IMG/VR virus record: IMGVR_UViG_3300005077_000450
Coordinates: 1 to 46,289 of that record
Direction: 5' to 3' (one strand)
From: a virus
Lineage: Duplodnaviria > Caudoviricetes
DNA: 46,289 bases
The notes beneath the pieces were generated by a model, which was given only the letters and a program-made list of their open reading frames with translations, did not search any database and was not told the origin of the DNA. Both the position numbers and the translations under genes were made by a program. Positions 421 to 34,182 of this stretch are shown one piece after another (within the stretch, counting starts at the first letter, position 1; each line of letters opens with the position of its first letter).

Positions 421-1839
421 ATGTTATCCCTTGTTCTGGTTTCCATTCTCGCACAAACAACGCTTTTTGATGGCGGGCTTATCTGCGGCAGGCCTAACGA
501 TCAAGGTTTTACAATCGGCTTTCGGCTTACCCAAACCGCAGATGTGATACTTGCCGTCGGAACCCAGCCAGGGCTTGCCGATGTCCATTTATCAACCACC
601 TATGCCGTCCTTCCCGGGAGCTACTTTCCCACGCTGAACGGGCTGTTCCCTGGGACCAGGTACTACTACCAAGCCGCAACGCGTCCAGGATCCATATGCA
701 GCGCAAAGCGCCGAGACTGGATTGTAACGCCTGTACATGAAGCCGTCACGCAGCGGGGCAACGGCGAATCATTCACCGCGTGCATCGTGGCGGACGAACA
801 CCTCTGGCCGATCGATCCAACGCAGCAGGTTTTATATGGAATCACGCTTGATAACATACTCGACAAGGGGCCGGACCTTCGATTTTCTCTCGGCGACTTC
901 AGTGGGTGTGAATCGTATGTTACATGGCCGATAGCCAACGTTGAAGAAGGCATCTACCGTTATTTCCTTCAGCGACAAGCCATGCAGGACGTAAACACCT
1001 GCGGCGCATTCTTCTTGGCGCTTGGCAACCATGAGGGCGAGCAAGGTTGGAGTGCCATCAAAGACGTTGCCTATCAATCGCGCCTCGCCGCTATTCCGAA
1101 TCCAATAACAGGAGGCTTACGGCAGAACTACTATTCTGTAGAATGGGGCGACGCGCTTTTTATAGTTCTTGATCCGTTTACATACACACAAAATAAACCG
1201 CACGACAATGGGCCAGGTACAGGAACCCATGACGGCTGGGACTGGACGCTTGGCGAAGATCAATATAATTGGCTTCATGGCGTCCTGGCCACCGCTGGCG
1301 CAACGTGGAAGTTTGTTTTAATACATCATCTAACAAGCACGATTGCGACAGGTTTTCAGGCATACTACGGGCGCGGAGGAATTGAAATCGCGTCTTATGC
1401 CGTTGCCGGGCGCCCATCCTTCGAATGGGGCGGCGAGGATGGCGATGGGCTTTGCGTGTTCAATTCTAAGCGGCCTGGCTGGCAATGGGGGCCGATTCAC
1501 CCGATGCTGGTGCAATATGGCGTAAATGCTGTTTTTCACGGCCATGATCACTTTTTCTGCTGGCAAGAATTGGACGGCATCGCCTATATCGAGTGTCCGC
1601 AGCCTGGCGACCAGACCTATGGGATGGGATGGAAAACCGGATCAGGCTATGTCAACGGCACGGCGCTGCCTAATTCGGGGTACATCACGTTAGACGTTTC
1701 ATCGAATGATGTGACGGTGCGCTATCGGCGGTCCTGGCTTCCCGGGGATGGGGTGAATGACGAGATTGCCTTTGAGAAAACATTCTTAGGGCTGCTATTT
1801 AGGAATTCAAAAAGTGCATGGAATAGGACGCGGCCTTAA
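421..1839 (+). CDS. secreted purple-acid-phosphatase-like metallophosphoesterase (FN3-like N-domain plus calcineurin-like domain)
   Basis: Hydrophobic signal peptide; motifs ADEH, LGDF, LGNHE, IHH, HGHDH. Confidence 0.85.
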   Translation: MLSLVLVSILAQTTLFDGGLICGRPNDQGFTIGFRLTQTADVILAVGTQPGLADVHLSTTYAVLPGSYFPTLNGLFPGTRYYYQAATRPGSICSAKRRDWIVTPVHEAVTQRGNGESFTACIVADEHLWPIDPTQQVLYGITLDNILDKGPDLRFSLGDFSGCESYVTWPIANVEEGIYRYFLQRQAMQDVNTCGAFFLALGNHEGEQGWSAIKDVAYQSRLAAIPNPITGGLRQNYYSVEWGDALFIVLDPFTYTQNKPHDNGPGTGTHDGWDWTLGEDQYNWLHGVLATAGATWKFVLIHHLTSTIATGFQAYYGRGGIEIASYAVAGRPSFEWGGEDGDGLCVFNSKRPGWQWGPIHPMLVQYGVNAVFHGHDHFFCWQELDGIAYIECPQPGDQTYGMGWKTGSGYVNGTALPNSGYITLDVSSNDVTVRYRRSWLPGDGVNDEIAFEKTFLGLLFRNSKSAWNRTRP

Positions 1840-2239
1840 TCAGCATCGGCGGGCAATATTGCAGTTTATTGGTTTAGGCGACAAAAGATGCGATGAACAA
1901 TTCCGTGTTTATAGGGTGTCTCCCGCCGCCAAGGCATTAAGGCCGAATGACAATGATGACATATATGACGAATTTAAAACGGATTACGTGCGCGTTATGG
2001 TCGTTCGCGATATCAATCTGTTATATCCTGAAAGCTGCGCTAAGTCGACGCTGGCGTTTCCTTGTGACAAATCGGGAAGAATCACATCTTGGATACTTTT
2101 GACAAGTCCCGGCGATGGAAGTGACTTTGCCTCGCCGCTAATCGAACTTGGATATCGTCTTTACAGCGGCGACAAAGAATACGGGACACCAGGCAGGCGC
2201 AGGCGGGGCATTGATTCAAAAATTATTGATTTGAATTAG
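1814..2239 (+). CDS. hypothetical protein
   Basis: Fills the gap in the + strand gene run. Confidence 0.5.
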   Translation: MHGIGRGLNQHRRAILQFIGLGDKRCDEQFRVYRVSPAAKALRPNDNDDIYDEFKTDYVRVMVVRDINLLYPESCAKSTLAFPCDKSGRITSWILLTSPGDGSDFASPLIELGYRLYSGDKEYGTPGRRRRGIDSKIIDLN

Positions 2240-2281
2240 TCATGGTGTAGGATTTCCGTAAAACATACCGGAGGCCGCATT

Positions 2282-2731
2282 ATGATTAAAGCGTTCGGGC
2301 TTGTTTATGAGGTGCAATTGTGCGATCGGATGGAAGACTCTGGCTGCTTTGATGCCGGTGAACAGGTGATTCAGATTTCAGCCGAGCAGCATAAGCAGCA
2401 ACAGCAACGCGCGCTGTTTCATGAGTGCCTCGAACTTGTTGTTTGTGAGTTATGCATTCCGATATCGCACGAGGATCTTTCTCGCATAGAAACAGGGCTT
2501 TTTCATGTCTTGACGTCTAACGGCGTTGTCATCGAATCTTTAATGAATGTCATCGATTATACAGACGAAAATGTTCAACCGATATCAGGCTTTGGGGTTC
2601 AGTCGAATAATGAGCGAGAGCGTGGTTCAGAGGTGGATAGCGTTTGCGGACATGATAACTCAAAAGCTTCAAAGAGGCGAAGCGCAGTTCGGGGACGTAG
2701 GGCTAACGTTCGACGACCAAAGGCTAAATGA
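2282..2731 (+). CDS. hypothetical protein, zincin-like (LFHECLE)
   Basis: RBS GGAGG; HExxE motif of small phage metallopeptidase-like proteins; C-terminus overlaps the next gene. Confidence 0.55.
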   Translation: MIKAFGLVYEVQLCDRMEDSGCFDAGEQVIQISAEQHKQQQQRALFHECLELVVCELCIPISHEDLSRIETGLFHVLTSNGVVIESLMNVIDYTDENVQPISGFGVQSNNERERGSEVDSVCGHDNSKASKRRSAVRGRRANVRRPKAK

Positions 2732-2876
2732 CGAGCGCGACGAGGAGCTATATGACGTGGTTGGATGGACGTTTTTAAAGTGGATGAAGCTTAGGCGCCC
2801 AAGGCGTCAGGGCCAGCACCCGCCGCCGCTTGGGCCTGATGAAGACCCGTATATGGGGGAGAGGGAATGCTACTAA
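2610..2876 (+). CDS. hypothetical protein (possible all-alpha NTP pyrophosphatase-like)
   Basis: Start re-placed at MSESVV; RGEAQFGD and DEELYD acidic motifs; adjacent to a phosphoesterase. Confidence 0.45.
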   Translation: MSESVVQRWIAFADMITQKLQRGEAQFGDVGLTFDDQRLNDERDEELYDVVGWTFLKWMKLRRPRRQGQHPPPLGPDEDPYMGERECY

Positions 2877-3547
2877 TCGCCGGGGGAGATTCGCACCATC
2901 CGATGAACGATAAAAGTCGGTGCGAAGTCTTTCTCGACGATATCCGCCGCCGCCAGCCGGATGCGGTTGTTCTCATGGGTGATATTTGGGACGCCTACCG
3001 CATAGCGCGGTTCACGCATACCATGAAGGACGCGCCGAATACCCTGGAAGAACTCGACTCGGTGCAGCGGTTTCTTTATTGGGTTCGCAAGGCCGCCGGG
3101 CCTGCTCGCGTTGTATACCTCAAGGGCAACCACGAGCTTCGCCTTGACAAACACATGGCCGACCGGGTGCCTGAGATTTACAAGCTCGAGGCGGCTAACC
3201 TTCCTGAACTTCTAAAACTTGCCGATATCGGTATCGAATGGGTTGACGATCACGACGATTTGGTTATGGATGGCGTAACCTACCGTCACGGCGACATCGT
3301 GCGGAAGGACCCAGGCAAGACGGCGCTCGAATACGTGAGTCGATACGCGGCGAGCTATGCTATCGGCCATTGTCACCGTATGGCAACCGTACAAAAGCGC
3401 GTAGGCGATAGCGTTTTAACCGGGATAGAATGCGGATGTCTCTGTTCCATGAAGGCGGCGTACGACTACTGTTACAAGCCGGATTGGTGCCGTGGGTATA
3501 TCGTGGTGCGCGACGGCGTGCCGGAACAGATAAAACTTGAAAGGTAA
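2867..3547 (+). CDS. calcineurin-like metallophosphoesterase
   Basis: Motifs GDSH, GDIWD, GNHE, HGD, GHCH. Confidence 0.9.
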   Translation: MLLIAGGDSHHPMNDKSRCEVFLDDIRRRQPDAVVLMGDIWDAYRIARFTHTMKDAPNTLEELDSVQRFLYWVRKAAGPARVVYLKGNHELRLDKHMADRVPEIYKLEAANLPELLKLADIGIEWVDDHDDLVMDGVTYRHGDIVRKDPGKTALEYVSRYAASYAIGHCHRMATVQKRVGDSVLTGIECGCLCSMKAAYDYCYKPDWCRGYIVVRDGVPEQIKLER

Positions 3548-3552
3548 AAGCG

Positions 3553-3747
3553 ATGGTTGCGCAAAGAAGCCTTAGCTATGCCGTTCTTAAGGCGTTTGCA
3601 AATAAGCTTGAAGATTGCTTGTCGCCCATGGAACTGAAGGGCGAAGGTGTAAGCGTTGAAGACTGGGAAGAGTTTTACGAAAAGGTTGATGCGGTTTATA
3701 TGGAAATGGGAACCATCATTGATTTCATGGATGGTAAAGACGTATGA
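3553..3747 (+). CDS. small acidic hypothetical protein
   Basis: ATGA overlap with the next ORF. Confidence 0.55.
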   Translation: MVAQRSLSYAVLKAFANKLEDCLSPMELKGEGVSVEDWEEFYEKVDAVYMEMGTIIDFMDGKDV

Positions 3748-4079
3748 AGTTCAACGACCTATCTGACAAGCTTATTTCGTGGTTGGCGGATAAAGGCATA
3801 AAGACGCACGAAGACCTCATGGTAGCGCCGGATTCGGCGTTCCACGTGACCGACGCATTAAGCCGTGGCGCATGGCGCGATCTGGCGATGTACTTCCGCG
3901 CTTGCGTGGAGGATCCCCGCGAATGCGTGTCAGAACCCCGCACAACGCCCGTATGCGCGGATTCGTCGCGGGACGTGGAACATCGCCTCTTGGATATAAT
4001 CGATCGCCTGACGGGCACCGTGCGGCTTACTGCGACGTCAACAACGGCTGCTGGCGGCATTCGGACATTCGATGATTGA
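3744..4079 (+). CDS. hypothetical protein
   Basis: Translationally coupled to the previous ORF. Confidence 0.55.
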   Translation: MKFNDLSDKLISWLADKGIKTHEDLMVAPDSAFHVTDALSRGAWRDLAMYFRACVEDPRECVSEPRTTPVCADSSRDVEHRLLDIIDRLTGTVRLTATSTTAAGGIRTFDD

Positions 4080-4080
4080 T

Positions 4081-4168
4081 AAAATTGCAGCAATCCGCCG
4101 CGAGCGCGTTTTTCTTCTCCTTTCACGCGGATCGGCCATAGAACTGATCGGCGCTTGCTGCAAGTTTT
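4081..4168 (+). ncRNA. hairpin-closed candidate antisense RNA
   Basis: Stem AAAATTGCAGCAA..CGCCG / CGGCG..TTGCTGCAAGTTTT; loop 4116-4136 matches 35904-35932 in three blocks. Confidence 0.55.
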
Positions 4169-4170
4169 CC

Positions 4171-4198
4171 TTGACTCGCGCGAACTACCCTTTACCCT
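4171..4198 (+). promoter_or_regulatory. candidate promoter upstream of the packaging operon
   Basis: TTGACT, 16 nt, TACCCT; same -10 hexamer as at 34177; TTGACTCGC recurs at 11693. Confidence 0.4.
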
Positions 4199-4417
4199 AG
4201 GGGGCTGGCGGTGTAAGAAGGGCACAACGATTGAGTAACTATTTTACAGAACTGAGACTCATAGAATGGCGACAAGAAGCTATAGCCGCTTCACCATGGT
4301 GGGTACAAGCAATCATATTAATCGATAATATTAATTTTAAGCAAGAGTACCTTTATGCCGCGTCACTAGCACCAAGACACCATATCGTATGCATCAATTA
4401 AGAGCGCACAAAATACA

Positions 4418-5077
4418 ATGAACAGACTATTTCCAGAATTCATAAAACCGTTACTGCTTATAGCTAAACCTTCTATAGTAATTGAAGTCGGCGCGCACGC
4501 TGGCGACAATACAGAAAAACTAATGGCTTGGTGCTTCGAAAATAATAGCATCCTGCACATGATAGACCCATCACCAAAGTTTGACTTCGCGGCCATGGAA
4601 AGAAAATATTCAGCACAATTCCGCGCGCATATCGATACCAGTCTAAACGCTTTAAAAAATATAGTGTGCGCCGATATGGTACTAATCGACGGCGACCATA
4701 ATTGGTACACCGTCATCAACGAACTGCGAATCCTAACCGAAAAAGCACAAGCCGCCGCTATCGCGCTACCAATTATTCTTCTTCACGACGTCGCCGAACC
4801 GTGCGCCTATCGCGATCACTACTACGCACCAGCAAGAATACCAGAACAATATAGGCACAAACATCATCCTGGCGGAGAACCGATACCGGCCATCGACAAA
4901 GACACGCCAAGAAACGGCGTGCTTTGCGCAGTAAAAGACTTCATGGCGGAATACCCAACAACGTACCAATTTAAAATGACGCATAAAGAGAACGGCCTAG
5001 GCGCATTGATAAGCGATCATCGGCTACAATCAATCGACGGCCTCGCGGGCTGGTTCAATGGGTTCGGTAGGTGCTAA
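4418..5077 (+). CDS. class I SAM-dependent methyltransferase (Methyltransf_24-like)
   Basis: IEVGAHAG, LIDGDHNWY and LLHD motifs. Confidence 0.85.
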   Translation: MNRLFPEFIKPLLLIAKPSIVIEVGAHAGDNTEKLMAWCFENNSILHMIDPSPKFDFAAMERKYSAQFRAHIDTSLNALKNIVCADMVLIDGDHNWYTVINELRILTEKAQAAAIALPIILLHDVAEPCAYRDHYYAPARIPEQYRHKHHPGGEPIPAIDKDTPRNGVLCAVKDFMAEYPTTYQFKMTHKENGLGALISDHRLQSIDGLAGWFNGFGRC

Positions 5078-5452
5078 ATGGGAAGGCCTAAAAAAGTAAT
5101 TGATGAAGAATTAGTGCGCGACCTTGCCAGCATCGGGTGCACATGGAAAGAGATAGCTTCTGTAGTTGGATGCGCGGAAACGCTTTTAATGCGCCGTTTT
5201 GCAAGCATTATAAAAGATGGACACGAGCATTTTAAATCATCGCTGAGAAGGTTGCAGTATAAGGCCGCACAAAATGGAAATGTGGCCATGCTGATATGGC
5301 TTGGAAAGCAAGTATTAGGACAACGCGAACGCGTCGAACACTCGGCTGATGAAGACACAGCAGACAAGGTGATAAAAGCCTTAAAGGCTATGGATGCAAC
5401 AATCGGAACAGACAATGGATCATCTGACGATAATAACGGCGACAAGAAATAG
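5078..5452 (+). CDS. terminase small subunit
   Basis: MGRPKK start, HTH, SLRRLQYKAAQNGNVAMLIWLGKQVLGQ motif; upstream of the large subunit. Confidence 0.8.
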   Translation: MGRPKKVIDEELVRDLASIGCTWKEIASVVGCAETLLMRRFASIIKDGHEHFKSSLRRLQYKAAQNGNVAMLIWLGKQVLGQRERVEHSADEDTADKVIKALKAMDATIGTDNGSSDDNNGDKK

Positions 5453-6206
5453 GCCGCGCGGAATCGAACTCGCCGGGCGCTGGATGCGCAACCAAAGCTA
5501 TTCAGGGCCGGTACGGTGGATCATCGTAGACGATGGCGAAGATCGGTGCGAGGCACCAACTGTAAAAACAAATTGGATTGTTGAAGTTATCCGCAGAGAC
5601 GTCGAAACAAATGAAATAGCAAGTTTCACGGGAAACCTTGAGACCGGGATTTCAGCTGTCGATGCCGAATCAAATACGGTCGCCATAATTGAGGACGATG
5701 ATTATTATCGGCCTGAATATCTTGAATTTATGCTGAAGGAAATGCACGACAGCCAGGTTAGCCTCGTCGGCATAAAGGCGCTGCACTACTATAATCTTCG
5801 TGATAAGCTATACGTCCCAATCGTCCCGATGTGTGCGGCCATGTGTACGACGTGCTTCAAGCGCACGATGTTCTCGCCGTTCCGATGGTCGCTTCGTCAC
5901 GCAAAGCGTATGCAAACAATTGACGTTGATTTCATCCTATGGACCAGCGCGGCTATCCAGCTTCCGCATAAGTACGTCTTCCCTTCCAGGGCGATTAATA
6001 TCGGCATGAAATGCATTCCTGGGAGAAGAAGAATCGGCGCACTTGGCTGGAAGGTTGACGAATCGCAGAAAGATAAATATCATATCGATCGGGACGGTAC
6101 AATATTGCGGCGTCTTATCGGAATAGAAGAAGACGCGCAAATTTATCTCGACTTAATCAAGGAGATTGAGGCCGATGTCAAAGCCGCTGCTTCGCATGGC
6201 GCCTAA
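5415..6206 (+). CDS. glycosyltransferase family 2 (GT-A fold)
   Basis: TIITATRNR, WIIVDDG and IIEDDDYY (DxD) motifs. Confidence 0.85.
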   Translation: MDHLTIITATRNRPRGIELAGRWMRNQSYSGPVRWIIVDDGEDRCEAPTVKTNWIVEVIRRDVETNEIASFTGNLETGISAVDAESNTVAIIEDDDYYRPEYLEFMLKEMHDSQVSLVGIKALHYYNLRDKLYVPIVPMCAAMCTTCFKRTMFSPFRWSLRHAKRMQTIDVDFILWTSAAIQLPHKYVFPSRAINIGMKCIPGRRRIGALGWKVDESQKDKYHIDRDGTILRRLIGIEEDAQIYLDLIKEIEADVKAAASHGA

Positions 6207-6537
6207 CGGGCGAATATTAGACGAACACGGCGATCCGGCGCGATTGGATGATATCGAGTCTGGATATGCCAACGTGCTTATGGGGCACCAGTCGGCAACA
6301 AAATCCCCGATTAAGCATCTAAAGACGCTGGCCATGATTGTGGCGGATATCTACAAGAACGCCATAACCAACGCGTATATTGGAATGCACAATAAATACC
6401 TGTTTAAAATATGGGAGTTTGAGGGCACTATTCCAACCGAATATCTTGAAAAGATAGCTGATGCGCTTGAAGAAATAGGCCCGTTTTCTCAGTCAGATAA
6501 AAAGGCTGCACAAAAAGAACCGCCGCCCGGCGAATGA
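6175..6537 (+). CDS. hypothetical protein
   Basis: Fills the gap between the glycosyltransferase and terminase; RBS GAGG. Confidence 0.55.
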   Translation: MSKPLLRMAPNGRILDEHGDPARLDDIESGYANVLMGHQSATKSPIKHLKTLAMIVADIYKNAITNAYIGMHNKYLFKIWEFEGTIPTEYLEKIADALEEIGPFSQSDKKAAQKEPPPGE

Positions 6538-7872
6538 TTGTTGCTAACGCCTCGATGGACGCAGCTTAGATACCATCCGGAACAGCGCCGCTTATGGGAC
6601 AGCTTGACGCGTTTTTGCGTCATCCATGCGGGACGAAGATCCGGGAAAACCGAACTCGCCAAGCGCAAGCTTGTCATGCGGGCGCTTGCCTATCATCATA
6701 CCAAAGACGGACATTTCGGCGCGTGCGCCCCGACATACTCACAAGCCAAGGCACTTTACTGGAACGACTTAAAGGCGCTTGTTCCGAAGCAATTTATCGG
6801 TGACATTTCAGAAAGCGAACTAACGATAACACTAAAGCCGGTGGCAACGCGCATTTCCGTCATCGGCATGGATAAGCCGTACCGCATCGAGGGAACGCCA
6901 TGGGATGGGCTTCTGCTTGATGAGTACGGCAACATGAAGCCTGGCGCATGGGGCCAGAACGTGAGGCCTGCGCTTTCGACGCCAGGGCGGCCTCCTGGAT
7001 GGGCGTGGCTGTTCGGCGTTCCAGAGGGATGCAACCACTACCACGAGCTATATCAATTCGCGAAGGATCCCGAGAATAATGACTGGGATGTCTTCTGGTG
7101 GAATAGCGCGGACATCCTTACCAAAGAAGAAATCGCGGCAGCCAAGGCGGAACTTGACCCTGTCATATTTCAGCAAGAGTACGAGGGGGCCTTTGTTTCT
7201 TTCGAGGGCAGGGCATACCACGCCTTCGAGGCGAGCGTTCATGCGCGGGACAGGTTGGAATATGATCCGGCGCTTCCGCTTTGCTTTTGCTTCGACTTTA
7301 ACATCGAGCCTGGCGTTGCTGCTGTACTGCAAGACCAGCGATATCGTGGTGGGCGTGGCGATGTGGCCGATCAAATAACCGCCGTCTTGGGTGAGGTACA
7401 CATCCGAAGAAACAGCAGGACGGATATTGTCGTTCGGAAGCTTTGCGAGGATTGGAAGCATCATACCGGACAAATAAGGTGCTACGGTGACGCGACGGGC
7501 GGCGCGGGCGGTTCTGCTAAGGTGGCCGGTTCTGATTGGCAAATAATCCGCAATATGCTTTCGCAGGCATGGCCGGAGCGCGTCGATGTGCGCGTGCCGA
7601 GAGAGAACCCGCGCGAACGCGTGCGTATCAACGCGCTAAATGGGCGGCTTCGAACTGCTGACGGAAAGATTCATATGCTGATAGATCCACGATGCAAGCG
7701 CATCATCGAGGATCTTGACAACGTGAGCGTGATTCCTGGATCTGCTGGCGAGCTTGATAAGACATCAAATCTTTTATTGACTCATTTAACGGATGCCTTA
7801 GGTTATTTCGTTGTGTACGAGCATCCGCTTCATGCAGGGGCGGAAACTGTTGCTATATCGGGGATTTATTAA
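6538..7872 (+). CDS. terL: terminase large subunit
   Basis: Walker A AGRRSGKT, Walker B LLLDE, FQQEYEG, nuclease DFN and HLTDALGY. Confidence 0.95.
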   Translation: MLLTPRWTQLRYHPEQRRLWDSLTRFCVIHAGRRSGKTELAKRKLVMRALAYHHTKDGHFGACAPTYSQAKALYWNDLKALVPKQFIGDISESELTITLKPVATRISVIGMDKPYRIEGTPWDGLLLDEYGNMKPGAWGQNVRPALSTPGRPPGWAWLFGVPEGCNHYHELYQFAKDPENNDWDVFWWNSADILTKEEIAAAKAELDPVIFQQEYEGAFVSFEGRAYHAFEASVHARDRLEYDPALPLCFCFDFNIEPGVAAVLQDQRYRGGRGDVADQITAVLGEVHIRRNSRTDIVVRKLCEDWKHHTGQIRCYGDATGGAGGSAKVAGSDWQIIRNMLSQAWPERVDVRVPRENPRERVRINALNGRLRTADGKIHMLIDPRCKRIIEDLDNVSVIPGSAGELDKTSNLLLTHLTDALGYFVVYEHPLHAGAETVAISGIY

Positions 7873-7955
7873 ATGGAAGGGCGACGCTCAAACTGGAACT
7901 GCGGCAGCTTCGGGTTGCGGGTTAATTGCATCGCCTGGGCCAAGCCCTTCCGTTT
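7871..7955 (+). ncRNA. hairpin-closed structured element
   Basis: 12-bp stem AAATGGAAGGGC / GCCCTTCCGTTT enclosing a C(UUCG)G sub-hairpin; followed by a T-rich tract. Confidence 0.4.
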
Positions 7956-7963
7956 TATTTTAA

Positions 7964-7981
7964 ATGGCGTGATTTCTCCTT
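7964..7981 (+). ncRNA. single-stranded segment antisense to the RBS/start of the 35725-35895 gene
   Basis: ATGGCGTGA-TT-TCTCCTT versus ATGGCGTGA-C-TCTCCTT at 35894-35910. Confidence 0.55.
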
Positions 7982-7989
7982 CTCCTTGT

Positions 7990-8037
7990 GCGCGGGCCGG
8001 GCGTGCTTTGGGCGGCGGGCCTGGCCTGCGCTTTTTT
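7990..8037 (+). terminator. intrinsic terminator
   Basis: GCGCGGGCCGGGC / GCCTGGCCTGCGC stem followed by TTTTTT. Confidence 0.7.
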
Positions 8038-8052
8038 ATTGGGTGATTATTT

Positions 8053-12740: not shown

Positions 12741-13928
12741 ATGTCTAACACGTTGGGTTATTATAACCCGTACTTTTACGCCAATGAGGCGTTGATTCAT
12801 CTTCGGAATGCCCTCGGCATGGCATCCCGTGTTCACATGGGGTTTGATGCGGAGCGGCGCGCCTTTAACAAGGGCGAGTACGTCAATATCCGCAAGCCTT
12901 CCACGTTTACTGCTACGGACGTTGTTTCTTCCTCCGGCGGAACTACCGCTGATCTCGCGACGGAAAGCGTGCAGGTCCAGCTTTCGAACTGGAAGGAAGT
13001 CAAGTTCTCGCTGACTGACAAAGAGCTTTCTTTCACGTCCGAGCGGATCATTTCCGACCATATCGCGCCTGCTGCGTATGCGCTGGCGAACGATATCGAT
13101 TCTGCGTTGTGCGACCTCTATAAGAAAGTCCCTGCAACCGTTTATATTGCTTCCGGTTCTGTTGCCGCGACCAGCGTCACGCAGGTTTGGGAAAAGATGT
13201 TTGACATGGGAATTCCCATGAACGACGTCAACAACCTGCATTTCATGGTCAACGGCAATGCGACCAGGGAGTTGCTTGACGAGACCGCCTTCACGTCGTG
13301 GAGCGTGGCAGGCGACAACGCTGGTCCTAACCTCATCAATGGAACCCTTGGGCGTCGTTATGGGTTTAACTTCTTCTCTAACCAGAACGTTAAGACTCAT
13401 ACCGGCGGCGTATACACCGATGGCGCTGGCGCCATTGACTCCGGAAGCTCGACTGGCTATGCCAAGGGAACGACCACCGTACACATCGACGCGTTGACTT
13501 CGGACGATGTTTTCGCGATTGGCGATTCCTTTTACATCACGGGCTACAAGCACCCGTACGCGCTGACCTCAGCCGTTACCATAACGAGTTCGGCCGAGGC
13601 CGACTTCGCGATTTATCCGGATCTGCATGAGGCGATTGCAGAGAATGCAGTTGTTACCTTCGGATCCGGCGGGACCACGAAGAGTGGATACGCAAACCTT
13701 GCTTTCCACAAGAACGCGTTCGCGCTTGTAACCGCGCCTCTCTCTGACATGGGCAATGAACTCGGCGCGAAAATCGCCGTGGTTCAGGATCCCGTCACCG
13801 GATTGTCGCTGCGCTCGCGCATCTGGTACGAGGGCGATTACAGCCGCGTGAAGGTCGGCCTGGATGTCCTGTACGGCGTCCAGGTGCTTGACGGACACTT
13901 GGCGTGCCGCCTGTTGGCCACCACGTAA
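12741..13928 (+). CDS. major capsid protein (P22 gp5 coat family)
   Basis: GEYVNIRKP, ALANDID, NLAFHKNAFALV and LDVLYG motifs; strong RBS. Confidence 0.9.
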   Translation: MSNTLGYYNPYFYANEALIHLRNALGMASRVHMGFDAERRAFNKGEYVNIRKPSTFTATDVVSSSGGTTADLATESVQVQLSNWKEVKFSLTDKELSFTSERIISDHIAPAAYALANDIDSALCDLYKKVPATVYIASGSVAATSVTQVWEKMFDMGIPMNDVNNLHFMVNGNATRELLDETAFTSWSVAGDNAGPNLINGTLGRRYGFNFFSNQNVKTHTGGVYTDGAGAIDSGSSTGYAKGTTTVHIDALTSDDVFAIGDSFYITGYKHPYALTSAVTITSSAEADFAIYPDLHEAIAENAVVTFGSGGTTKSGYANLAFHKNAFALVTAPLSDMGNELGAKIAVVQDPVTGLSLRSRIWYEGDYSRVKVGLDVLYGVQVLDGHLACRLLATT

Positions 13929-13941
13929 CGTAACGATTCAA

Positions 13942-13977
13942 AGGCTCGGGTGCCGCAAGGCGCCCGGGCCTCCTTTC
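13942..13977 (+). terminator. GCAA-tetraloop hairpin after the capsid gene (weak terminator or stabiliser)
   Basis: AGGCTCGGGTGCC-GCAA-GGCGCCCGGGCCT; short U tract. Confidence 0.5.
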
Positions 13978-13988
13978 GAGGTGGACGC

Positions 13989-14201
13989 ATGGCACCGAGT
14001 AAACCTAACCACATCGCCATCTACGGCCCTAAGGGGCATTTATTGATCGACAAAAGCGAATTGCAGGCGTGGCTGGATCGCGGGTATGTCCGGGAATCCG
14101 AGATGGCGGCAACGCTTCCAGTCACGGATGACGAGACAAGCGCGGAAGACGTTAAGAAACCGCGCAAGCGGAAGGTGAAACAGGATGCGGGCCTTTCTTG
14201 A
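13989..14201 (+). CDS. small hypothetical protein after the capsid gene
   Basis: RBS GAGGTGG; basic C-terminus KKPRKRK. Confidence 0.65.
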   Translation: MAPSKPNHIAIYGPKGHLLIDKSELQAWLDRGYVRESEMAATLPVTDDETSAEDVKKPRKRKVKQDAGLS

Positions 14202-15259: not shown

Positions 15260-17911
15260 ATGGCTCAGGAGATCATCCGGCCTAACTCGGACATGAACAC
15301 AACATGGACTCCTAGCGGGGCTGCAACCCGTTATGAGTGCGTGGACGATGTTACGCCGGATGATGCTTCTACCTATATTCAGTCGCCAGCATCGACGCTT
15401 GTTCAGCAGCTTGGCCTTAACGCGCCAACAGGCATACCAGCCGGTTCGACAATCAACGGATGCTCGCTTTATGTAAGATATTTGGTCACCGGGACCAACA
15501 ACATCCGCGTCGGGTTGCGCATTGGCTCAACCAACTACACGGCGGATTATACGCCTGGCAGCACAGGCACGTGGCTTGAGATTTACCATACCTATTCGAC
15601 AAATCCAGCAACAAGCGACTATTGGGAACTATCGGACTTTGACAGCATAGGCGCTATCGTTCGCAATAATAATATCTCGCAGAATTATTATGTGACGATG
15701 GTTGCTCTTGTCATAAACTACACTGAACCGGGCGCGCATAATCTAACTGCCTTAGATATTACGGTGGGCGCACCGCTTGTCGATGCCCCTGCGATCGGGC
15801 AGAAGCACGCGCTAACTGCATCGGATGTTTTAGCGGGCGCCGCAGCGGTTGACGCCCCGGCGTTGGGACAGAAGCACGCCCTCTCGGCGTCTGACATTGC
15901 CATTGGCGTCGCGACAATCGACGCGCCTGCGCTCGGGCATATTTACGCGCTGACGGCCCCGGACATCTTGGCTGGCGCTGCATTGATTGACGCCCCAGCC
16001 ATCGGGCAGGTTCATTCTTTATCTGCCGCCGACGTTGCAGCCGGTGCCTTGTTGATTGAGGGGCCAGCGATAGGGCAAAAGCACGTCCTATCTGCGCCTG
16101 ACATTTTAATCGGCGCGGCATTAATTGACGCCCCTGCCGTAGGACAGTCCCACGCGTTATCCGCGCAAGATATTCTTATCGGGGCGCCTCTTGTAGACGC
16201 GCCCGCGCTATCCGAAGAATCCGGCCTTCTGCCCCTTGACATAACAATCGGCGCACCAGCTATTGATGCCCCGCCACTCGGGCAAAAACACGCCTTAACT
16301 GCACCGGATGTAGTTATTGGCGCAGCATTGATGGATGCCCCGTCGATTGGCCAAGTTCATTCGATAGCGGCGTCCGATATGGCTATCGGTGCGCCGCTAT
16401 TGGATTCCCCGCAAGTCGGGCAAAAGCACGCGCTCGTTGCATCCGACGTCGCTATCGGTTCTGCTGCTATCGATGCGCCCGTTATTGGACAAATCCACGC
16501 GCTTTCGGCAGCGGACTTGGCGGCGGGGGCTGCCGTGCTCGACGCGCCAGCGTTGGGCCAGGTGCATGGCCTTGAGGCCTCGGACATCTCGATTGGTGCG
16601 CCTTTAATCGATGCGCCGATCCTCGGTACGGACAACTCGCTAACCGCGCTTGACATCACGATGGGTGTGCCTGCGGTAGACGCGCCCGCGCTTGGCCAGG
16701 TTCACGGGCTATCCGTCCCGGACGTGCTGGCGGGTGCCACCGCCATCGACGCGCCCATGCTTGGACAGGCGCACAAGATTCGCGCTTCCGAGATCACCAT
16801 CGGCGCGCCGCTGATCGATGCGCCCGCGCTTACCTCGGATGATGTACTTGTCGCTCTGGACGTTCTAATTGGCGCACCAGCGATTGATTCGCCTGCGGTT
16901 GGACAGAACCACGCGCTAACCGCCGAAGACGTCGCCACGGGCGCTGTAGACGTCGAGGCGCCGTCTGTAGGGCAGGCCCACGGCCTATCCGCGTCCGATA
17001 TCGTATGCGGATCCCCTGCGATTGATTCTCCGGCCCTTGTTGCCTTTGCGTCTCTAACCGCACTTGATATTTCGCTTGGTGCTGCGGCAATCGATGCCCC
17101 GGCAATCGGCCAATATCACGTACTCGTCGCCGGGGAAATTGCTATCGGTTCTCCGAGAATCGATAGACCAGCAATCAACGCGGCGCAGGCCGTTGTCAAC
17201 GATGGATCGCTTGTTTACAAAATATATACGATCGTCCAGGCATACGGGAAAACGGCAACATACATCGGCACATTATCCCAAGACGTTAAAACAACGCCGC
17301 CGTATCCTGTTACCGATAAGATGCTTCGCGATGATATTCTTCGCGTGGGCGACGCGATGGCGTATTTACCGGCTGCCGGATTATCTGAAACGCCAGCCGC
17401 CGGGCACTATTTATTAATAGACGGCAGAAAATGGATTATAGTAAGGCTTGACAAGGTATTTACCGGAGACGGTTCGTCGGTAGGTGCCTATGGATTATAT
17501 CTAAGGCGATTTGGGAAAAGCCTTGCATCAGCGTCTACCAGTTCGACGAAGCTTGACGCGCGTCTTCGGTCACGCATTGCGTCACTGATATCGACTAAGG
17601 GGCAGGACGCGGTTTTTGCCGTGTGGGATCCTGGGACGTACGATCCTGCGACGCTTACCATATCAGGCGGAAGCACAAGCAACAGCACCGAGAAGGTTGT
17701 TCTTGTGTCCATGGGGGATGAGTTTTTACAGCCTGGCGATATTAAGACGGCTGGTCGTATAAAGGCGTTCCTTCCTGCCTATGGAATATCATTTACCCCT
17801 GCTGCTGGTATGACGGTAACGGCGGCAGGCGCGTCGTGGAAAATAGTGGATGATGGCCCTATTTATACCGGCGAGCAAGTCGGCCTCTATCAGCTTGTAT
17901 TGGAGCGTTAG
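15260..17911 (+). CDS. repeat-fibre protein fused to two head-closure-like domains
   Basis: ~159-aa N-domain, 21 x 23-aa repeats, then two domains ending WIIV..YGLYLRR and WKIV..YQLVLER; occupies the stopper gene position. Confidence 0.7.
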   Translation: MAQEIIRPNSDMNTTWTPSGAATRYECVDDVTPDDASTYIQSPASTLVQQLGLNAPTGIPAGSTINGCSLYVRYLVTGTNNIRVGLRIGSTNYTADYTPGSTGTWLEIYHTYSTNPATSDYWELSDFDSIGAIVRNNNISQNYYVTMVALVINYTEPGAHNLTALDITVGAPLVDAPAIGQKHALTASDVLAGAAAVDAPALGQKHALSASDIAIGVATIDAPALGHIYALTAPDILAGAALIDAPAIGQVHSLSAADVAAGALLIEGPAIGQKHVLSAPDILIGAALIDAPAVGQSHALSAQDILIGAPLVDAPALSEESGLLPLDITIGAPAIDAPPLGQKHALTAPDVVIGAALMDAPSIGQVHSIAASDMAIGAPLLDSPQVGQKHALVASDVAIGSAAIDAPVIGQIHALSAADLAAGAAVLDAPALGQVHGLEASDISIGAPLIDAPILGTDNSLTALDITMGVPAVDAPALGQVHGLSVPDVLAGATAIDAPMLGQAHKIRASEITIGAPLIDAPALTSDDVLVALDVLIGAPAIDSPAVGQNHALTAEDVATGAVDVEAPSVGQAHGLSASDIVCGSPAIDSPALVAFASLTALDISLGAAAIDAPAIGQYHVLVAGEIAIGSPRIDRPAINAAQAVVNDGSLVYKIYTIVQAYGKTATYIGTLSQDVKTTPPYPVTDKMLRDDILRVGDAMAYLPAAGLSETPAAGHYLLIDGRKWIIVRLDKVFTGDGSSVGAYGLYLRRFGKSLASASTSSTKLDARLRSRIASLISTKGQDAVFAVWDPGTYDPATLTISGGSTSNSTEKVVLVSMGDEFLQPGDIKTAGRIKAFLPAYGISFTPAAGMTVTAAGASWKIVDDGPIYTGEQVGLYQLVLER
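15737..17185 (+). repeat. 21 tandem 69-bp (23-aa) coding repeats
   Basis: Consensus HALxAxDIxIGAPxIDAPAIGQx, counted by eye. Confidence 0.9.
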
Positions 17912-27917: not shown

Positions 27918-30620
27918 ATGCAAGTAGCATTCGGCGTTGTCATTGGTGCGTATGTCGGGATTGCCCAAGGCCGTTATCCATGGTGGATAGGTGGTCCTGG
28001 CGGATACTTGGCGCACGCGATCGGAAAATGGATCGGCTGGCAAGACTGGAAAGATCCAAAGATTTCCGAAATGCCGAAGCTTGGCGAGATTGCGTTCTCC
28101 GGCGCAAGCGAAGGCCAGCCGGTTCCGTTCTGCGTTGGGAATGAAACGCGCGTACCTGGGACATACGTCTATATTAGTGCGTTGCGAACCGCGCGCGGTT
28201 CGCCAGAAAGATTTATTGGCAAAGGCGGCGGCGGCGATAGGCCGGATGCTCCGGTTCAGACTTTTTACTTCAAGGATGTGGCGCTTGTATGGTCCAGCAC
28301 AAAAGATGTATATTATGCCGCCGTACCCGTTAAGCGAATCCTTGCTAATGGGCGGCTAATTTATCTTGCCAACCATTCATCATCACAATCAAGCAACCAG
28401 ATATCTATTTACCAGGGTTCACATACTGACGAGATGGCGCTTTATTGCCCTTATACTGGGCCTTCGGGCTTCGATTTTAGAAAATTCGCCGCTGGAATAA
28501 ATATTACCATATCCGGATGCTCTAAGGCTGCGAACAACGGCACGTTTCTGGTTAAGGGGGTATATTATGATCCAGAATGGGCCGAAACAATTATGCTTAT
28601 TCATAATCCTGCCGGACAAAACGAAGCGGCGGGAGCCAACATCACGTGCACGCAGACATGGTCAAGCTGGCAAGACGAAGTTATCGGCATCATAAAAAAT
28701 TATCGTTCACTTGCTGGACACAATCTCCCGTCGGACGATCCACTAAAAGATTATTACGGCGACTATCCGCCTGGGTTTGGACGAAGATGTTTTTCATCTA
28801 TTGGCGGATTGTCGCTTATGCAGTTTTCAAACCAAATTCCGCGCATGGACGCGATCATCGGGCCATTAAGCGAGGGTATGTCTTCCTGCGGCTATAGCGA
28901 TGCTATCGATATATTTTGCAGGCGAGCGGATTTTTACGACATCGATGGGACAACCGCGATGTTTAATACGTCCCTCGTCAATGGTACGTGCAACGGATAT
29001 AATACCTATGGGCCTGGCCGCGTATCTGAACAAATCCACCCGCTAATGGTTGCTGCGAATGTTGCGACGCAAGAACGCAACGGCGTATTATATTTCTTTA
29101 GCAGGCAGAACGCGGATGAAGTAACCGTTGACGAATCGGACCTGGGAATCGTACAGGAGAATCAACAGCATCAAAAGAAGGTCGAAGTCAACGATCATAA
29201 AGATACGCGGATCCCTTCTACCGTAGCGATTGAGTTTGTGGATATGCACAACAACTACGAGAAGGCCGTCGAAGTATACGCGCCGGATATGAATGAACTT
29301 ATCGGCTATGGAACGAACAAAAAAAAGACGGCAGATATTATGAACATCTCGCTTGGCGTTGCCATGAGCAGGCCCGAGGCGGCGTGCATTGCCAAGCGGC
29401 TTCTGGGGATGGCGCGGGTAGGCAGGCTGTGGGTGAATGCAACGCTTCCTTTTAATTACATTCACATCCTTAAAAACGATAAGGTGATTTTAAGCGCCTA
29501 CGATACATCGTGGAAAATACTGGTACAGGAACGAACGCGGACGCCGGATTATAAGATTCAGATCGGCGGGCCTGTCGTTTACGATTCATTGCTGGAACTA
29601 GAATTCGAAGACACCGAATTAGACCGTGCGCTAAATATGCCTCCCGGCCCGCTTCAATTGTTTTTTGCGATTGTCGATGCATCCCCGCTGCAAGATGTCG
29701 ATGCAACGTCGCCATGTGTTTATTTTGCCATATCTCGGCTTAATATAGGCGCACCATTTAGAGGCGCGGCGATCTATGAAAGTGACGATGGCGCGACCTG
29801 GCATGAACTCGTAAAGGTTACAGAACAATCCGCGACGGGTTATTTGATGTCCGAGCTTCCAGGATGCACAGCGCCAGAAATTATAGATAACGCGAACACG
29901 CTTGAGGTTGAAGTCGCGTCAGACGATGAACTCGAAAGCGTGACGGAAGCAGAAATGCTATCTGGCGCGAATAGAATGGCCATTATCGATAGTGATGGGA
30001 CTACAGAAATAATTGGATACACAACGGCAACGCTTGCGGATCGCCGGTATGGTTGCGGCACCATCTATAATCTCACCGGGCTGTGGCGCGGGCTATGCAA
30101 TACCGAAGAGTCGGCCATCGCCGGGCATGATGCCCTTTCCAAGATTGTGTTTTTGAACAAACCTGGGCTTATAAAGCATCCAATTAATATTCGAATGAAC
30201 GGCGGTACGCGATATTATAAAGCTGTCCCTGTTGCTGGCGATCCTACGGATGATGACAATTATCCACCAATAACGCACGTGCATTCGGTTGGTTCGATCC
30301 GGCCTTACCAGGTATGCCATGCGCGGGCAGTTAGATCCGCAACGGGCGGAATCACGCTTTACTGGCAGCCGAGAACGCGTGGGATCACGCGCCTTTTTAC
30401 CGCAGCGAAGCCGCGATTCGAAGATGAGGCTTACGAGATAGACGTCATGGACGGCGAGACGGTGGTTCGGACGCTTACCGGGACGAGCACCAGGACGGCG
30501 ACATATTCCTTGGCTAATTTAACGGCGGATGGATTTACCGCCTTTGAGTCGATTACGTTTAAGTTTTATCAGATATCTCCGCTGATTGGGCGGGGCAAGG
30601 AGCTGGAGGTCACGTTATGA
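27918..30620 (+). CDS. central tail / baseplate protein (RcGTA megatron-like)
   Basis: GASEGQPVPF, GANRMAI..EIIGY, LWRGLCNTE, WQPRTR and YEIDV motifs. Confidence 0.8.
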   Translation: MQVAFGVVIGAYVGIAQGRYPWWIGGPGGYLAHAIGKWIGWQDWKDPKISEMPKLGEIAFSGASEGQPVPFCVGNETRVPGTYVYISALRTARGSPERFIGKGGGGDRPDAPVQTFYFKDVALVWSSTKDVYYAAVPVKRILANGRLIYLANHSSSQSSNQISIYQGSHTDEMALYCPYTGPSGFDFRKFAAGINITISGCSKAANNGTFLVKGVYYDPEWAETIMLIHNPAGQNEAAGANITCTQTWSSWQDEVIGIIKNYRSLAGHNLPSDDPLKDYYGDYPPGFGRRCFSSIGGLSLMQFSNQIPRMDAIIGPLSEGMSSCGYSDAIDIFCRRADFYDIDGTTAMFNTSLVNGTCNGYNTYGPGRVSEQIHPLMVAANVATQERNGVLYFFSRQNADEVTVDESDLGIVQENQQHQKKVEVNDHKDTRIPSTVAIEFVDMHNNYEKAVEVYAPDMNELIGYGTNKKKTADIMNISLGVAMSRPEAACIAKRLLGMARVGRLWVNATLPFNYIHILKNDKVILSAYDTSWKILVQERTRTPDYKIQIGGPVVYDSLLELEFEDTELDRALNMPPGPLQLFFAIVDASPLQDVDATSPCVYFAISRLNIGAPFRGAAIYESDDGATWHELVKVTEQSATGYLMSELPGCTAPEIIDNANTLEVEVASDDELESVTEAEMLSGANRMAIIDSDGTTEIIGYTTATLADRRYGCGTIYNLTGLWRGLCNTEESAIAGHDALSKIVFLNKPGLIKHPINIRMNGGTRYYKAVPVAGDPTDDDNYPPITHVHSVGSIRPYQVCHARAVRSATGGITLYWQPRTRGITRLFTAAKPRFEDEAYEIDVMDGETVVRTLTGTSTRTATYSLANLTADGFTAFESITFKFYQISPLIGRGKELEVTL

Positions 30621-31096
30621 CATACTCACCCATTGGCGGGCTATCCTATCATGTGCCGGGCGAGATTGGATCCGAGACAACGGTTAATGCCAACTATAAT
30701 CGATTGGAGACCATGGCCTGGTTGTTAATCAAGGATCGCGATCTAACGGCGCCGCCCGGGTCACCGGCGAACGGGGACGCGTATCTTGTAGCGGCGACGG
30801 CCACGGGCGCATGGACGGGCCAGGAAGGAAAAATCGCTGTCTACTATGATGGGTGGGTATTTGTAGCCCTGAAGGGCGGTGCCATTGCCTATGTCCAGGA
30901 CGAGGGCGAATGGCTTGGGTACACCGGGGCGGCTTGGGTGACGTTCCGCGCGATACATGGGCTTGTCGTATCAGATATCCTCGCAGGTGCCGCCGAGGTT
31001 GAAGCGGTTGCCTTGTCTCAAGTGCATGGCCTTACGGCTTCGGATATCATGGCTGGGGCGGCGGAGCTGGACGCGCCCGCCGTGGCCGAGGCCTGA
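30617..31096 (+). CDS. DUF2793 tail protein with two C-terminal 23-aa repeats
   Basis: DRDLTAPPGSPANGDAYLVAATATGAWTGQ motif; the last 46 aa are two copies of the 15737-17185 repeat. Confidence 0.85.
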   Translation: MTYSPIGGLSYHVPGEIGSETTVNANYNRLETMAWLLIKDRDLTAPPGSPANGDAYLVAATATGAWTGQEGKIAVYYDGWVFVALKGGAIAYVQDEGEWLGYTGAAWVTFRAIHGLVVSDILAGAAEVEAVALSQVHGLTASDIMAGAAELDAPAVAEA

Positions 31097-31303: not shown

Positions 31304-31659
31304 CGAAAGGAGCGAGCGATGAATCAAGAAATAAAGAGAGCGATGGAAGAGGCCAAGATGTCGCCGGTTATGGTGATGGAACAAGCAGAGGACTTTGAGA
31401 GCGAGGCAGCCATAGAGGCGCTTACGGCGATGAACAAGGCCGAAAACACTGGCAATGCTATCGACGCGGCAAACGCGATGACCGCCTGCGCGAAGTGGAT
31501 TGAGAAAAACGAGGATGCGGCATTACAGATCATCCGCAAGCGCATCCTTGCCCGCGCTGCATTAGCGGAGCGCGATGCGCGACCGATGACACCCGGTGAG
31601 GTTGATAAGCTGCTTGGGATGTAATATGAGGCAACCAGAGCGAAAGGAGCGAGCGATGA
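31304..31659 (+). repeat. 19-bp direct repeat spanning RBS and ATG of two adjacent genes
   Basis: CGAAAGGAGCGAGCGATGA at 31304-31322 and 31641-31659. Confidence 0.9.
31319..31624 (+). CDS. hypothetical protein
   Basis: ATG inside the RBS repeat. Confidence 0.7.
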   Translation: MNQEIKRAMEEAKMSPVMVMEQAEDFESEAAIEALTAMNKAENTGNAIDAANAMTACAKWIEKNEDAALQIIRKRILARAALAERDARPMTPGEVDKLLGM

Positions 31660-31934: not shown

Positions 31935-32283
31935 AGCAATCGGAGATAACTCTTACAGCCTATTTGAACAGCTCGGTAAAATATCTCCGCTTTTTGGTGG
32001 CACTACAAGGCCATATGGTGTTAGCGAGGTGTTTTGCGACCGCATAACTGGCGAGATACACCTAATGGCTATACGTGGTCGCAAGGACTACTCCAAAGCG
32101 AACAGCAAAGGTTCGCGCGGCGTATATCTCAATTATGTCATTGAGAGCGGGCATCTATATTTTGTCCGCGAGGCCGTATCGTGGAAGCGCATACGCGAAT
32201 ATTTTTGCCTAGCATCGGAAGACGGTGAAGTTGTCGAATTAAATGATACGGAGGCTATGTCGTGGCTGGCAAAAAATTCTTAG
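31912..32283 (+). CDS. hypothetical protein directly upstream of ibrA
   Basis: KDYSKANSKGSRGVY motif; overlaps the ibrA start. Confidence 0.7.
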   Translation: MKAAIKIEAIGDNSYSLFEQLGKISPLFGGTTRPYGVSEVFCDRITGEIHLMAIRGRKDYSKANSKGSRGVYLNYVIESGHLYFVREAVSWKRIREYFCLASEDGEVVELNDTEAMSWLAKNS

Positions 32284-33464
32284 GCATCAATGTATTGGAC
32301 GCTGCCAGAGCGAGGATTGCATGGGTATTCGATAACATCCCGCGCGTCTATGTATCTTTTAGCGGCGGGAAAGACTCTACAGTTATGCTGCATCTTGTGG
32401 CCGAGGAGGCCAGAAAGCGCAACAAAAGATTCGGACTGCTATTTGTAGACCTTGAAGGGCAATACAGGCTAACTATTGAACACGTGGCCGCGTGCTATGA
32501 TATGTACTCCGACATCGTGGAGCCTTACTGGGTGGCGCTTCCTATTCACCTCCGCAATGCCGTATCTCAATTCGAGACACATTGGCTCTGCTGGGACAAG
32601 GCGCGCGAAGCTGATTGGGTTAGGTCTCGGCATATAACATCCATAGGCAACGAATCGTTCTTTCCGTTTTTCCGAAGCGGAATGGAGTTCGAAGAGTTCA
32701 CGCCAGCATTCGGCCATTGGTTCGGCGACGGCAAGCTGACTGCGTGCTTTGTTGGGATTAGAACGGCCGAATCCTTAAACCGGTGGCGTACGATTGCCGC
32801 TGGGAGAAAGCAGGCCATGGACGGGAAGTGTTGGACTACGTGGTGCGGCGAGTCGTTGTGGAATATCTATCCAATCTACGACTGGAAAACCGAAGACATA
32901 TGGACCTATCATGGAAAGTATCCAGATAGGCCATATAACAAGCTATATGACAGAATGTATCAGGCTGGTCTTACCATTCATCAAGCGCGAATCTGCCAGC
33001 CTTATGGTGACGACCAACGCAAAGGATTATGACTTTTTCACGTTATAGAGCCGGAGACGTGGGCCCGCGTTGTGGCTCGCGTCAACGGAGCCAACCAGGG
33101 CGCTATCTATGCGCAGGAGAGCGGGAACGTATTGGGGAGGATAACCATATCCAAACCAGAGAATCATTCGTGGCAATCGTTCGCGATGCTGCTGCTTGAA
33201 AGCCAGCCACCAAAAACGCAGGAACATTTTCGAAATAAAATTGCAGTTTTTTTAAAATGGTATGCTGACAGAGGTTTCTCGAATGGCATTCCTGATGATG
33301 GACCTCTAGACAAAAGCGCGCCATCATGGAAGCGAATATGCAAAGCTCTGCTGCGGAATGACTATTGGTGCAAAGGGCTTTCTTTTACTCAGCACAAGTC
33401 CGCCGCTTATCAAAAATACTTGAAGCTCATGGAGAGGAGGCGCAGAGAATGGAAGTTGATTTAA
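32262..33464 (+). pseudogene. ibrA: IbrA/YbdN-like PAPS-reductase-family protein (DUF3440) with an in-frame TGA
   Basis: SFSGGKDS, GIRTAES and YPIYDW motifs; the frame continues QRKGL*LFHVIEPETWARVVARVNG with TGA at 33030-33032; NDYWCKGL. Confidence 0.8.
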
Positions 33465-33976
33465 CATGGACCACTAATCATCCGGTGTCCCGCGTGCAAT
33501 GGCTACCCGTTGAGCAACTGCACGCTAATGACTATAATCCGAATGCCGTGGCGCCGCCGGAGATGAAGTTGCTCAGGATCTCTATTGAAAGTGACGGGTA
33601 TACTCAGCCGATTGTTGCATGGATTGTAGACGAAAACGAGTACGAGGTCGTGGATGGCTTTCACCGTTACAAGGTAGGTGTCGAGCTTGGGCTGAGTCAC
33701 CTTCCTGTTGTTGTTATAAACGCCGCCAGAGCTGACCGGAGCGACCGCATTGCCGCGACGATTCGGCATAATAGGGCTCGCGGCAAACATCAGGTCGGAG
33801 CCATGAGCGATATCGTGCAAGAACTTGCGCGGCGCAATTGGAGTGACCAGAAGATTGCGCGCGAGCTTGGCATGGAACCAGACGAAGTTTTGAGGCTCAA
33901 ACAGATTACCGGACTTGCCGAGTTATTTGCTGACCGTGAATTTTCCGAGGCCTGGGAGGGCGATCCAGATGCATGA
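33449..33976 (+). CDS. ibrB: IbrB/YbdM-like ParB-family protein
   Basis: ANDYNPNAVAPPE, DGYTQPIV, VVDGFHR and TIRHNRARGKH motifs. Confidence 0.9.
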   Translation: MEVDLTWTTNHPVSRVQWLPVEQLHANDYNPNAVAPPEMKLLRISIESDGYTQPIVAWIVDENEYEVVDGFHRYKVGVELGLSHLPVVVINAARADRSDRIAATIRHNRARGKHQVGAMSDIVQELARRNWSDQKIARELGMEPDEVLRLKQITGLAELFADREFSEAWEGDPDA

Positions 33977-34157: not shown

Positions 34158-34182
34158 CCTTCCAGCCGCCCTTGGTTACCCT
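34154..34182 (+). promoter_or_regulatory. integrase promoter (probably leaderless mRNA)
   Basis: TTGACC, 17 nt, TACCCT; ATG 34190 follows after 7 nt with no SD. Confidence 0.55.

Follow-up and report, generated by a model that had tools for sequence, protein, structure and literature searches.

Does the untranslated tail of a terminase transcript carry an RNA that acts on the lysogeny genes of the same phage? This question is raised by an 18-nt segment, ATGGCGTGATTTCTCCTT, which occurs only once, at positions 7964-7981 (+), in the window, i.e., in the whole stretch of DNA that we analyzed, the 46,289-nt linear record of a temperate phage (CheckV completeness estimate, 59%). The segment lies in a 180-nt spacer between the gene for the terminase large subunit, terL (6538-7872, +; PHROG 2, E 1e-30), and gene 8053, and is contained in the terL 3' UTR. 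The portal gene (from 9028), the capsid gene (12741-13928), and tail genes are also found in the window, and the early genes run rightward from 36907. The lysogeny genes comprise a serine integrase (34190-35728, +) and a leftward operon, in which cI (35911-36576; HTH and Peptidase_S24 domains) is followed by a second gene, an ORF of 56 amino acids (35725-35895, -) that begins 15 nt past the cI stop. An excisionase-like gene is present as well. The GC content of the excisionase-integrase module (33915-36000) is 59%-68%, versus about 51% elsewhere, which suggests a module swap. Other observations on the gene setting concern accessory genes: a region at 421-6537 (+) with two metallophosphoesterases, a methyltransferase, and a glycosyltransferase around terS; a PAPS-reductase and ParB-domain gene pair at 32262-33976 (+) that precedes the excisionase; and an MT-A70 methyltransferase at 43955.

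The first-pass annotation had described the segment as single-stranded between two hairpins, the second of which is a terminator, and our folding agrees with this description. A branched stem-loop (7873-7953, +; closed by 7873-7882/7944-7953) begins at the base after the terL stop. It is followed by an exposed segment of 36 nt (7954-7989, +), which consists of an AU-rich stretch (7954-7963), possibly a processing site, the candidate seed (7964-7981), and a second anti-SD word (7981-7987). Within the seed, 7964-7972 is the non-SD part, which matches a start tag of the lysogeny genes (see below), and 7975-7981 is the first anti-SD word. On the plus strand, TCTCCTT words outside the target occur only at 4116, 7975, and 7981. 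Next comes a predicted intrinsic terminator (7990-8039, +), a GC hairpin (7990-8031) and then the U-tract UUUUUUAU; at -35.9 kcal/mol, no hairpin with a U-tract elsewhere in the contig is stronger. In the terminated transcript, 7964-7981 is unpaired with a mean probability of 0.71. Hairpins were observed at two other places. Downstream of the capsid gene (13945-13991, +), one hairpin precedes a second, small one by which the SD of gene 13989 is masked, and a strong terminator-like hairpin with a U-tract (40690-40743, +; -33.7) lies within the putative ORF 40592-40831.

A gene caller places an ORF of 57 amino acids (7873-8046) across the spacer, in which the anti-SD words would be Ser-Pro codons. 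We rejected it as a real gene: its codon score (-0.11) is below those of all 206 in-frame windows and equals the median of 162 open off-frame windows, and it has no Atlas or Pfam match. Because its codon score resembles that of off-frame windows, the spacer is treated as non-coding. We also rejected a gene running leftward from the two SD-like words of the minus strand, since no start codon follows them. The spacer contains no sigma-70-type promoter. ARAGORN found nothing, and Rfam gave no match up to E=1 in the window. The seed-plus-terminator layout proposed in the first-pass annotation is thus borne out by a non-coding spacer, an exposed seed, and a strong predicted terminator.

The folding also bears on a purely local role, in which the segment, when transcription reads through, extends the terminator stem and masks the SD of gene 8053, so as to tune the downstream genes, or else serves as an attenuator. 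In the read-through transcript, 10 of the 12 bases of 7969-7980 are mostly paired (unpaired probabilities down to 0.02-0.43), and their partner is 8041-8050, the SD region of gene 8053. Nevertheless, this pairing includes mismatches and gains no more than about 4 kcal/mol; the terminator hairpin forms with a probability of about 1, regardless of whether a ribosome blocks 7873-7885; and the 5' seed is left unexplained. Folding found no competing structure for the terminator region, and attenuator or riboswitch switching was therefore rejected. We consider a role in cis only to be very improbable.

The named partner of the segment is AAGGAGAGTCACGCCAT at 35894-35910 (-), which spans the SD, the spacer, and the AT of the start codon of the 56-amino-acid ORF. 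RNAduplex reproduced the pairing at the positions originally given, in the order 9 bp, a bulged U, a G-U pair, and 7 bp. In other words, the duplex has 17 pairs (16 Watson-Crick and one G-U) and one bulge, with an energy of -25.3 kcal/mol for the exact pair and -26.3 kcal/mol with flanks, and it joins two sites 28 kb apart (all lysogeny targets, at 34190-36576, are 26-29 kb away). On both strands, this start is the best non-self partner of the 18-mer, and the next best is 36687-36703 (+) at -24.3. Start sites were ranked with ViennaRNA duplex, constraint, and cofold runs. Against the phage starts, the 18-mer ranks the 56-amino-acid start 1/63, with the runner-up (-19.6) 6.7 kcal/mol behind. 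None of 450 foreign starts reaches -22 with the 18-mer; these starts were called with a crude ORF finder, and their SDs are on average weaker. For the SD of the 56-amino-acid gene itself, pairing in cis with codons 3-5 is predicted as well.

The target gene has coding-like codon use, and its product has one N-terminal hydrophobic helix (hydropathy of a 19-residue window, 2.76) and a charged tail. Homologue searches with this protein returned only itself, and its Atlas matches are below 0.9 and serve as leads only. From its place behind cI, our guess is an exclusion-type membrane protein. A small hydrophobic protein is also a feature of type I toxin-antitoxin systems, whose antitoxin RNA adjoins or overlaps the toxin gene, whereas the candidate RNA is not adjacent to the 56-amino-acid gene. 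An overlap with the target of a second element at 4116-4135 (+) had been pointed out earlier. By sequence this is correct, with 11 contiguous pairs to the same target, but the element is largely folded, and in the folded state its binding falls to -6.2 (rank 19/64), so that it gives little independent support.

How surprising is such a match? When all spacers were compared with all starts, an equally good match was found in 44 of 200 shuffles. Across eight scoring/window settings the figure was 12-97 of 150 shuffles (8%-65%), and with real spacers or starts from unrelated phages it was 12%-53% of the resamples; the loci used as foreign controls are viral loci matched by the early-leader pattern. 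The single match is therefore not clearly above chance. With the anti-SD core held fixed, only 1/600 shuffled and 16/600 random flanks do as well, figures that precede correction for the several anti-SD words available. Three spacers converge on the 56-amino-acid start, and this convergence depends on the scoring: under strict scoring it was equaled in 0-5 of 150 shuffles and 0%-4% of the tests with foreign sequence, and under looser scoring in 21-109 of 150 and 14%-27%, respectively.

The exposed stretch extends to 7989 and thereby carries two tandem anti-SD words, which changes the ranking. The 26-mer 7964-7989 pairs better with the start region of a DUF2793 tail gene (gene 30617; 30594-30619, +; -31.2) than with the named target (-29.6), which becomes 2/63. 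When the costs of opening the structures are included, the 56-amino-acid start ranks 4 and 4 (of 63), and 2 and 5 (of 64), according to the context length. The 18-mer alone puts the named target first, whereas with the full segment or with accessibility some other starts pair as well or better, so that the equal pairing to other ribosome-binding sites that would speak against the first-pass reading is in part observed. Because the full segment and accessibility put the target only second to fifth, the signal is in part generic anti-SD pairing. A general anti-SD small RNA, whose tandem UCUCCUU words would cover strong ribosome-binding sites in large numbers, in the host or in the phage (those of gene 30617 and the early gene 38323 included), with the 56-amino-acid gene as just one of its targets, accounts for the two words and for the net binding with accessibility at these two sites (-21 to -24; many other starts lie at -12 to -16). 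Small RNAs with CU-rich seeds that target the SD are known, according to the available portion of PMC12205990. On the other hand, the 5' half of the segment adds nine perfect pairs specific to the 56-amino-acid start and prefers the tagged genes, and late repression of a tail gene makes little sense. We regard this explanation as improbable. As to the tail gene itself, a 69-nt (23-amino-acid) repeat array at 15742-17120 (+), within a virion protein of 883 amino acids, has a repeat unit that also ends the DUF2793 protein (30617-31096). Further downstream, a 15-nt ribosome-binding region is duplicated ahead of two small genes (31304-31321 and 31641-31658, +); a sigma-70-like promoter and, near 31158, a strong terminator lie upstream of it.

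The best three partners of the 26-mer in the whole genome, 36681-36703, 30594-30619, and 35893-35918, are all leader or start regions. Two partners that had no part in the selection reach -31.2 or better, where 1.03 Mb of foreign sequence would lead one to expect 0.18. Moderate matches at -24 are not enriched genome-wide (12 seen versus 16 expected). A score for three partners together makes the 26-mer the best of 162 spacer windows and is matched by 2% of 1000 pseudo-genomes, although this last figure is favored by windows registered on 7964 and includes the buried partner at 36681; for the top-1 score and the starts-only score, 52% and 26% of the pseudo-genomes match the 26-mer.

The buried partner (36681-36703, +) belongs to the early leader, where it forms part of the 5' arm of a double stem-loop like that of CI, and it has been considered whether this leader RNA (36673-36745), rather than the lysogeny starts, is the true partner, with the segment as its target or as a binder of its 5' arm while the transcript is nascent. 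Its duplex is the best in the genome by raw energy (-32.7), and it ranks 1/64 (-22.8) when the leader is cut before the 3' arm. However, the net binding to the folded RNA is only -0.3, since the stem is stable and the toehold is 2 nt. A variant of this idea is a DNA motif read by a protein, with family members at 7965, 30605, 35895, and 36687; the motif has no dyad, and in three genes the tag is in register with ATG, which points to translation rather than to a DNA site. Even taken together, these two possibilities seem very remote to us.

The early leader is of interest in its own right. The region 36627-36910 (+) has a layout like those of P4 CI, P1 c4, and IsrK. Its double stem-loop (36673-36745; z -4.8) has G-U pairs that favor the plus strand, a 9-nt bulge, and an 8-nt loop, and the bulge and the 3' arm pair with 36629-36644 (-24.0). 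This site covers the start region of a leader ORF of 87 amino acids (36647-36910); the stop of this ORF and the ATG of the first early gene overlap. Rfam gave no match for the leader, and a search with the Rfam C4 model (RF01695) found none, although the controls gave no match either. Among 110 viral matches to the early-leader pattern, none had the inverted partner within 250 nt. A minus-strand copy of the leader binds the 56-amino-acid start second worst (rank 63/64). The early leader is probably a stronger RNA candidate than the segment at 7964. Two leftward TGGTAGATT boxes (36640-36648 and 36804-36812, -) resemble extended -10 promoters; they can also be read as a direct repeat (ATCTACCAAT), a possible operator. 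In the region 40007-40260 (+), a further candidate antisense element, 40243-40253, follows a long stem (arms 40007-40036 and 40199-40228) and is predicted to pair with the 56-amino-acid start (rank 1/64, -24.9) and with the cI start codon.

Support for the segment at 7964 is added by a feature that the first-pass annotation does not mention, the match of its non-SD half to a tag on the lysogeny starts. CGCC directly precedes ATG in only three of the 64 starts, and these are the integrase (34186-34192, +), the 56-amino-acid gene (35893-35899, -), and cI (36574-36580, -). The background is low among foreign starts (1/450; 1/73 among the GC-rich ones), and among all ATGs of the window the counts are 5/857 and 15/728 on the two strands. 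Only 3 of 41,664 triples of starts have four bases in common in this way, the lysogeny triple among them; the tag was found after the fact, and cI and the integrase had no part in the choice of the segment. Judged from the start sequences, it is unlikely that the three genes have this tag in common by chance. The consensus extends to TC(N)CGCCAT. Against it, the 9-nt seed is fully complementary in the 56-amino-acid gene, has one mismatch in the integrase, and has one bulge in cI, and these starts take ranks 1, 2, and 3 of 64 with it. In the first test of the non-SD half, the best starts were those of the 56-amino-acid gene, cI, the tail gene, and the integrase. The cI start (36574-36587, -) has no SD near it and forms 11 pairs with one bulge (-13.8), and the integrase start (34184-34192, +), which has no SD, forms 8 of 9 pairs.

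The tag is a likeness among starts and is not in itself proof that an RNA from the terL tail reads it. The pairing with cI and the integrase is ordinary, being equaled by 147 of 1663 foreign blocks. In their contexts, cI ranks 24-55 and the integrase 35-45 of 64, and the whole 18-mer ranks them 12 and 20. The pairing summed over the three tagged starts is matched by only one of the 1663 foreign blocks, while two other spacers of the phage, at 40243 and 4290, come within 2 kcal/mol of the segment's sum. In addition, predicted cis hairpins are present at all three tagged starts and may explain part of their context.

These observations bring us to the main rival, in which the spacer is an ordinary 3' UTR with a terminator (or with processing or stabilizing hairpins), the match is a chance pyrimidine-rich extension, and the common CGCC has to do with the context of the start codon or with cis hairpins through which translation of the lysogeny genes stays weak. 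It agrees with the shuffling results for the single match, with the cis hairpins just mentioned, and with the number of moderate matches genome-wide, and a similar hairpin with a CU-rich tail is indeed found after the capsid gene (13945-13975). It must, however, leave to chance also the coincidence of the tag with cI, the integrase, and the 56-amino-acid gene, the exposed position before the best terminator, and the two strong unselected partners. We therefore think of it as a serious possibility, but not a probable one.

The reading we prefer, from sequence and folding models, is that the 3' end of the terL transcript may be a 3'UTR-derived trans-acting RNA aimed at the starts of the lysogeny genes, a proposal for and against which we would wager equally. 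Transcription would stop near 8037, and an RNA some 75-165 nt in length would be freed by cleavage in the AU-rich stretch, or would be active as the tail of the mRNA. The 5' seed would nucleate on the CGCCAUG tag, and the anti-SD half would then zip over the SD of the 56-amino-acid gene and open its cis hairpin; on cI and the integrase, where the duplexes are shorter, the help of a chaperone such as Hfq would be required. The seed would thus cover the start codons of the lysogeny genes, that of the 56-amino-acid gene most strongly, and block their translation in lytic growth, so that the repressor, the integrase, and the probable exclusion-type membrane protein would be turned off once the packaging genes are expressed. 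By the late stage of lytic growth, lambdoid phages have normally shut off the cI operon, and the need for such an RNA is for this reason not obvious. A more ambitious version, which we put forward only tentatively and rather doubt, is an RNA of lytic commitment, one seed of which reads a private CGCCAUG tag and silences together the repressor, the integrase, and the exclusion protein from two distant operons. Somewhat speculatively again, it might do the reverse of what the c4/CI immunity RNAs do, in a phage whose early leader has a CI-like RNA.

Sequence relatives are few. The exact 18-mer has no match in viral_contigs. For cI, there was none in viral_contigs and one 20-residue match in metagenomes, and only cI itself was found among 777 candidates. 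The search with gene 8053 returned only itself, and scans with the AAA ATPase, the portal, and the integrase yielded no loci. Relatives were obtained for terL (42 + 4 loci, 32%-57% identity) and for the capsid (4 loci, 45%-51%). Downstream of terL, the spacer was in none of the sequences covered (40 of the 42 viral loci; 43 terL 3' ends), and most terL relatives run directly into the next gene. blastn of the spacer against 161 loci gave a single 22-nt match (E 0.02), and against annotated phages nothing below E 0.1. The relatives are all distant and have no homologous spacer, and none is near enough to show covariation. A search for sequencing runs listed none, RNA runs included.

How does the candidate compare with known systems? 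The Sar RNA of phage P22 is encoded opposite its target and is fully complementary to it. Unlike cis-antisense RNAs such as Sar and OOP, the candidate would be trans-encoded, 28 kb away, and would form an imperfect duplex. According to the available text of PMC12197685, Sar, by base pairing, prevents translation of a lysis-lysogeny regulator from being initiated, and a block of initiation by pairing is also what we propose for the candidate. The same text describes VpdS (VP882) and PreS (lambda) as trans-acting phage small RNAs that favor lytic development, with mostly host RNAs as the targets described. The candidate would likewise be phage-encoded, trans-acting, and pro-lytic, and in the portion of the VpdS/PreS literature available, a common start-codon tag on cI and an integrase was not found.

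Among 3'UTR-derived small RNAs, a class reviewed in PMC7821165, NarS is described in the available part of PMC7038943 as a terminator-ended, trans-acting RNA. The candidate resembles this class in its non-coding mRNA tail, exposed seed, intrinsic terminator with a U-tract, and distant SD/start target, and it differs in that it would be phage-encoded, derived from the terminase operon, aimed at the phage's own lysogeny genes, and predicted from sequence. StxS, as the accessible text of PMC7547250 presents it, binds Hfq and is derived from a late phage transcript that is terminated; its pairing partners are mRNAs of the phage and of the host. The candidate would similarly be a short RNA from such a transcript; according to the same text, StxS represents the 5' end (PR'-tR') and is produced in lysogeny, whereas the candidate would be the 3' end of the terL transcript. 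The c4 RNA of P1/P7 and the CI RNA of P4 are, in the available portions of PMC8198154 and PMC4825925, antisense RNAs that lie in the operon they control and enforce lysogeny. The control of the lysis-lysogeny decision through short tags to which the RNA pairs at two or more sites, described there, is a feature they would have in common with the candidate, which in contrast does not lie in the leader of its target operon (7964 versus 34190-36576) and would favor lysis. In the literature available to our search, with subscription papers mostly outside its scope, we found no RNA from a terminase operon aimed at the starts of cI and an integrase. The available part of PMC12205990 also reminds us that predictions of small RNA function routinely give false positives.

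The known antisense RNAs of the lysis-lysogeny decision mostly adjoin their target and protect lysogeny, and an RNA from the packaging operon would differ from them. If the match is due to chance, the locus is a clear example of how easily anti-SD stretches beside terminators mimic small RNAs. If the proposal is true, it gives a rule for searching other phages, namely, to look for a tag that the starts of cI and int have in common and for a complement of it just ahead of a late terminator, and the phage would have a post-transcriptional lock on the lytic state that works through one common start-codon tag.
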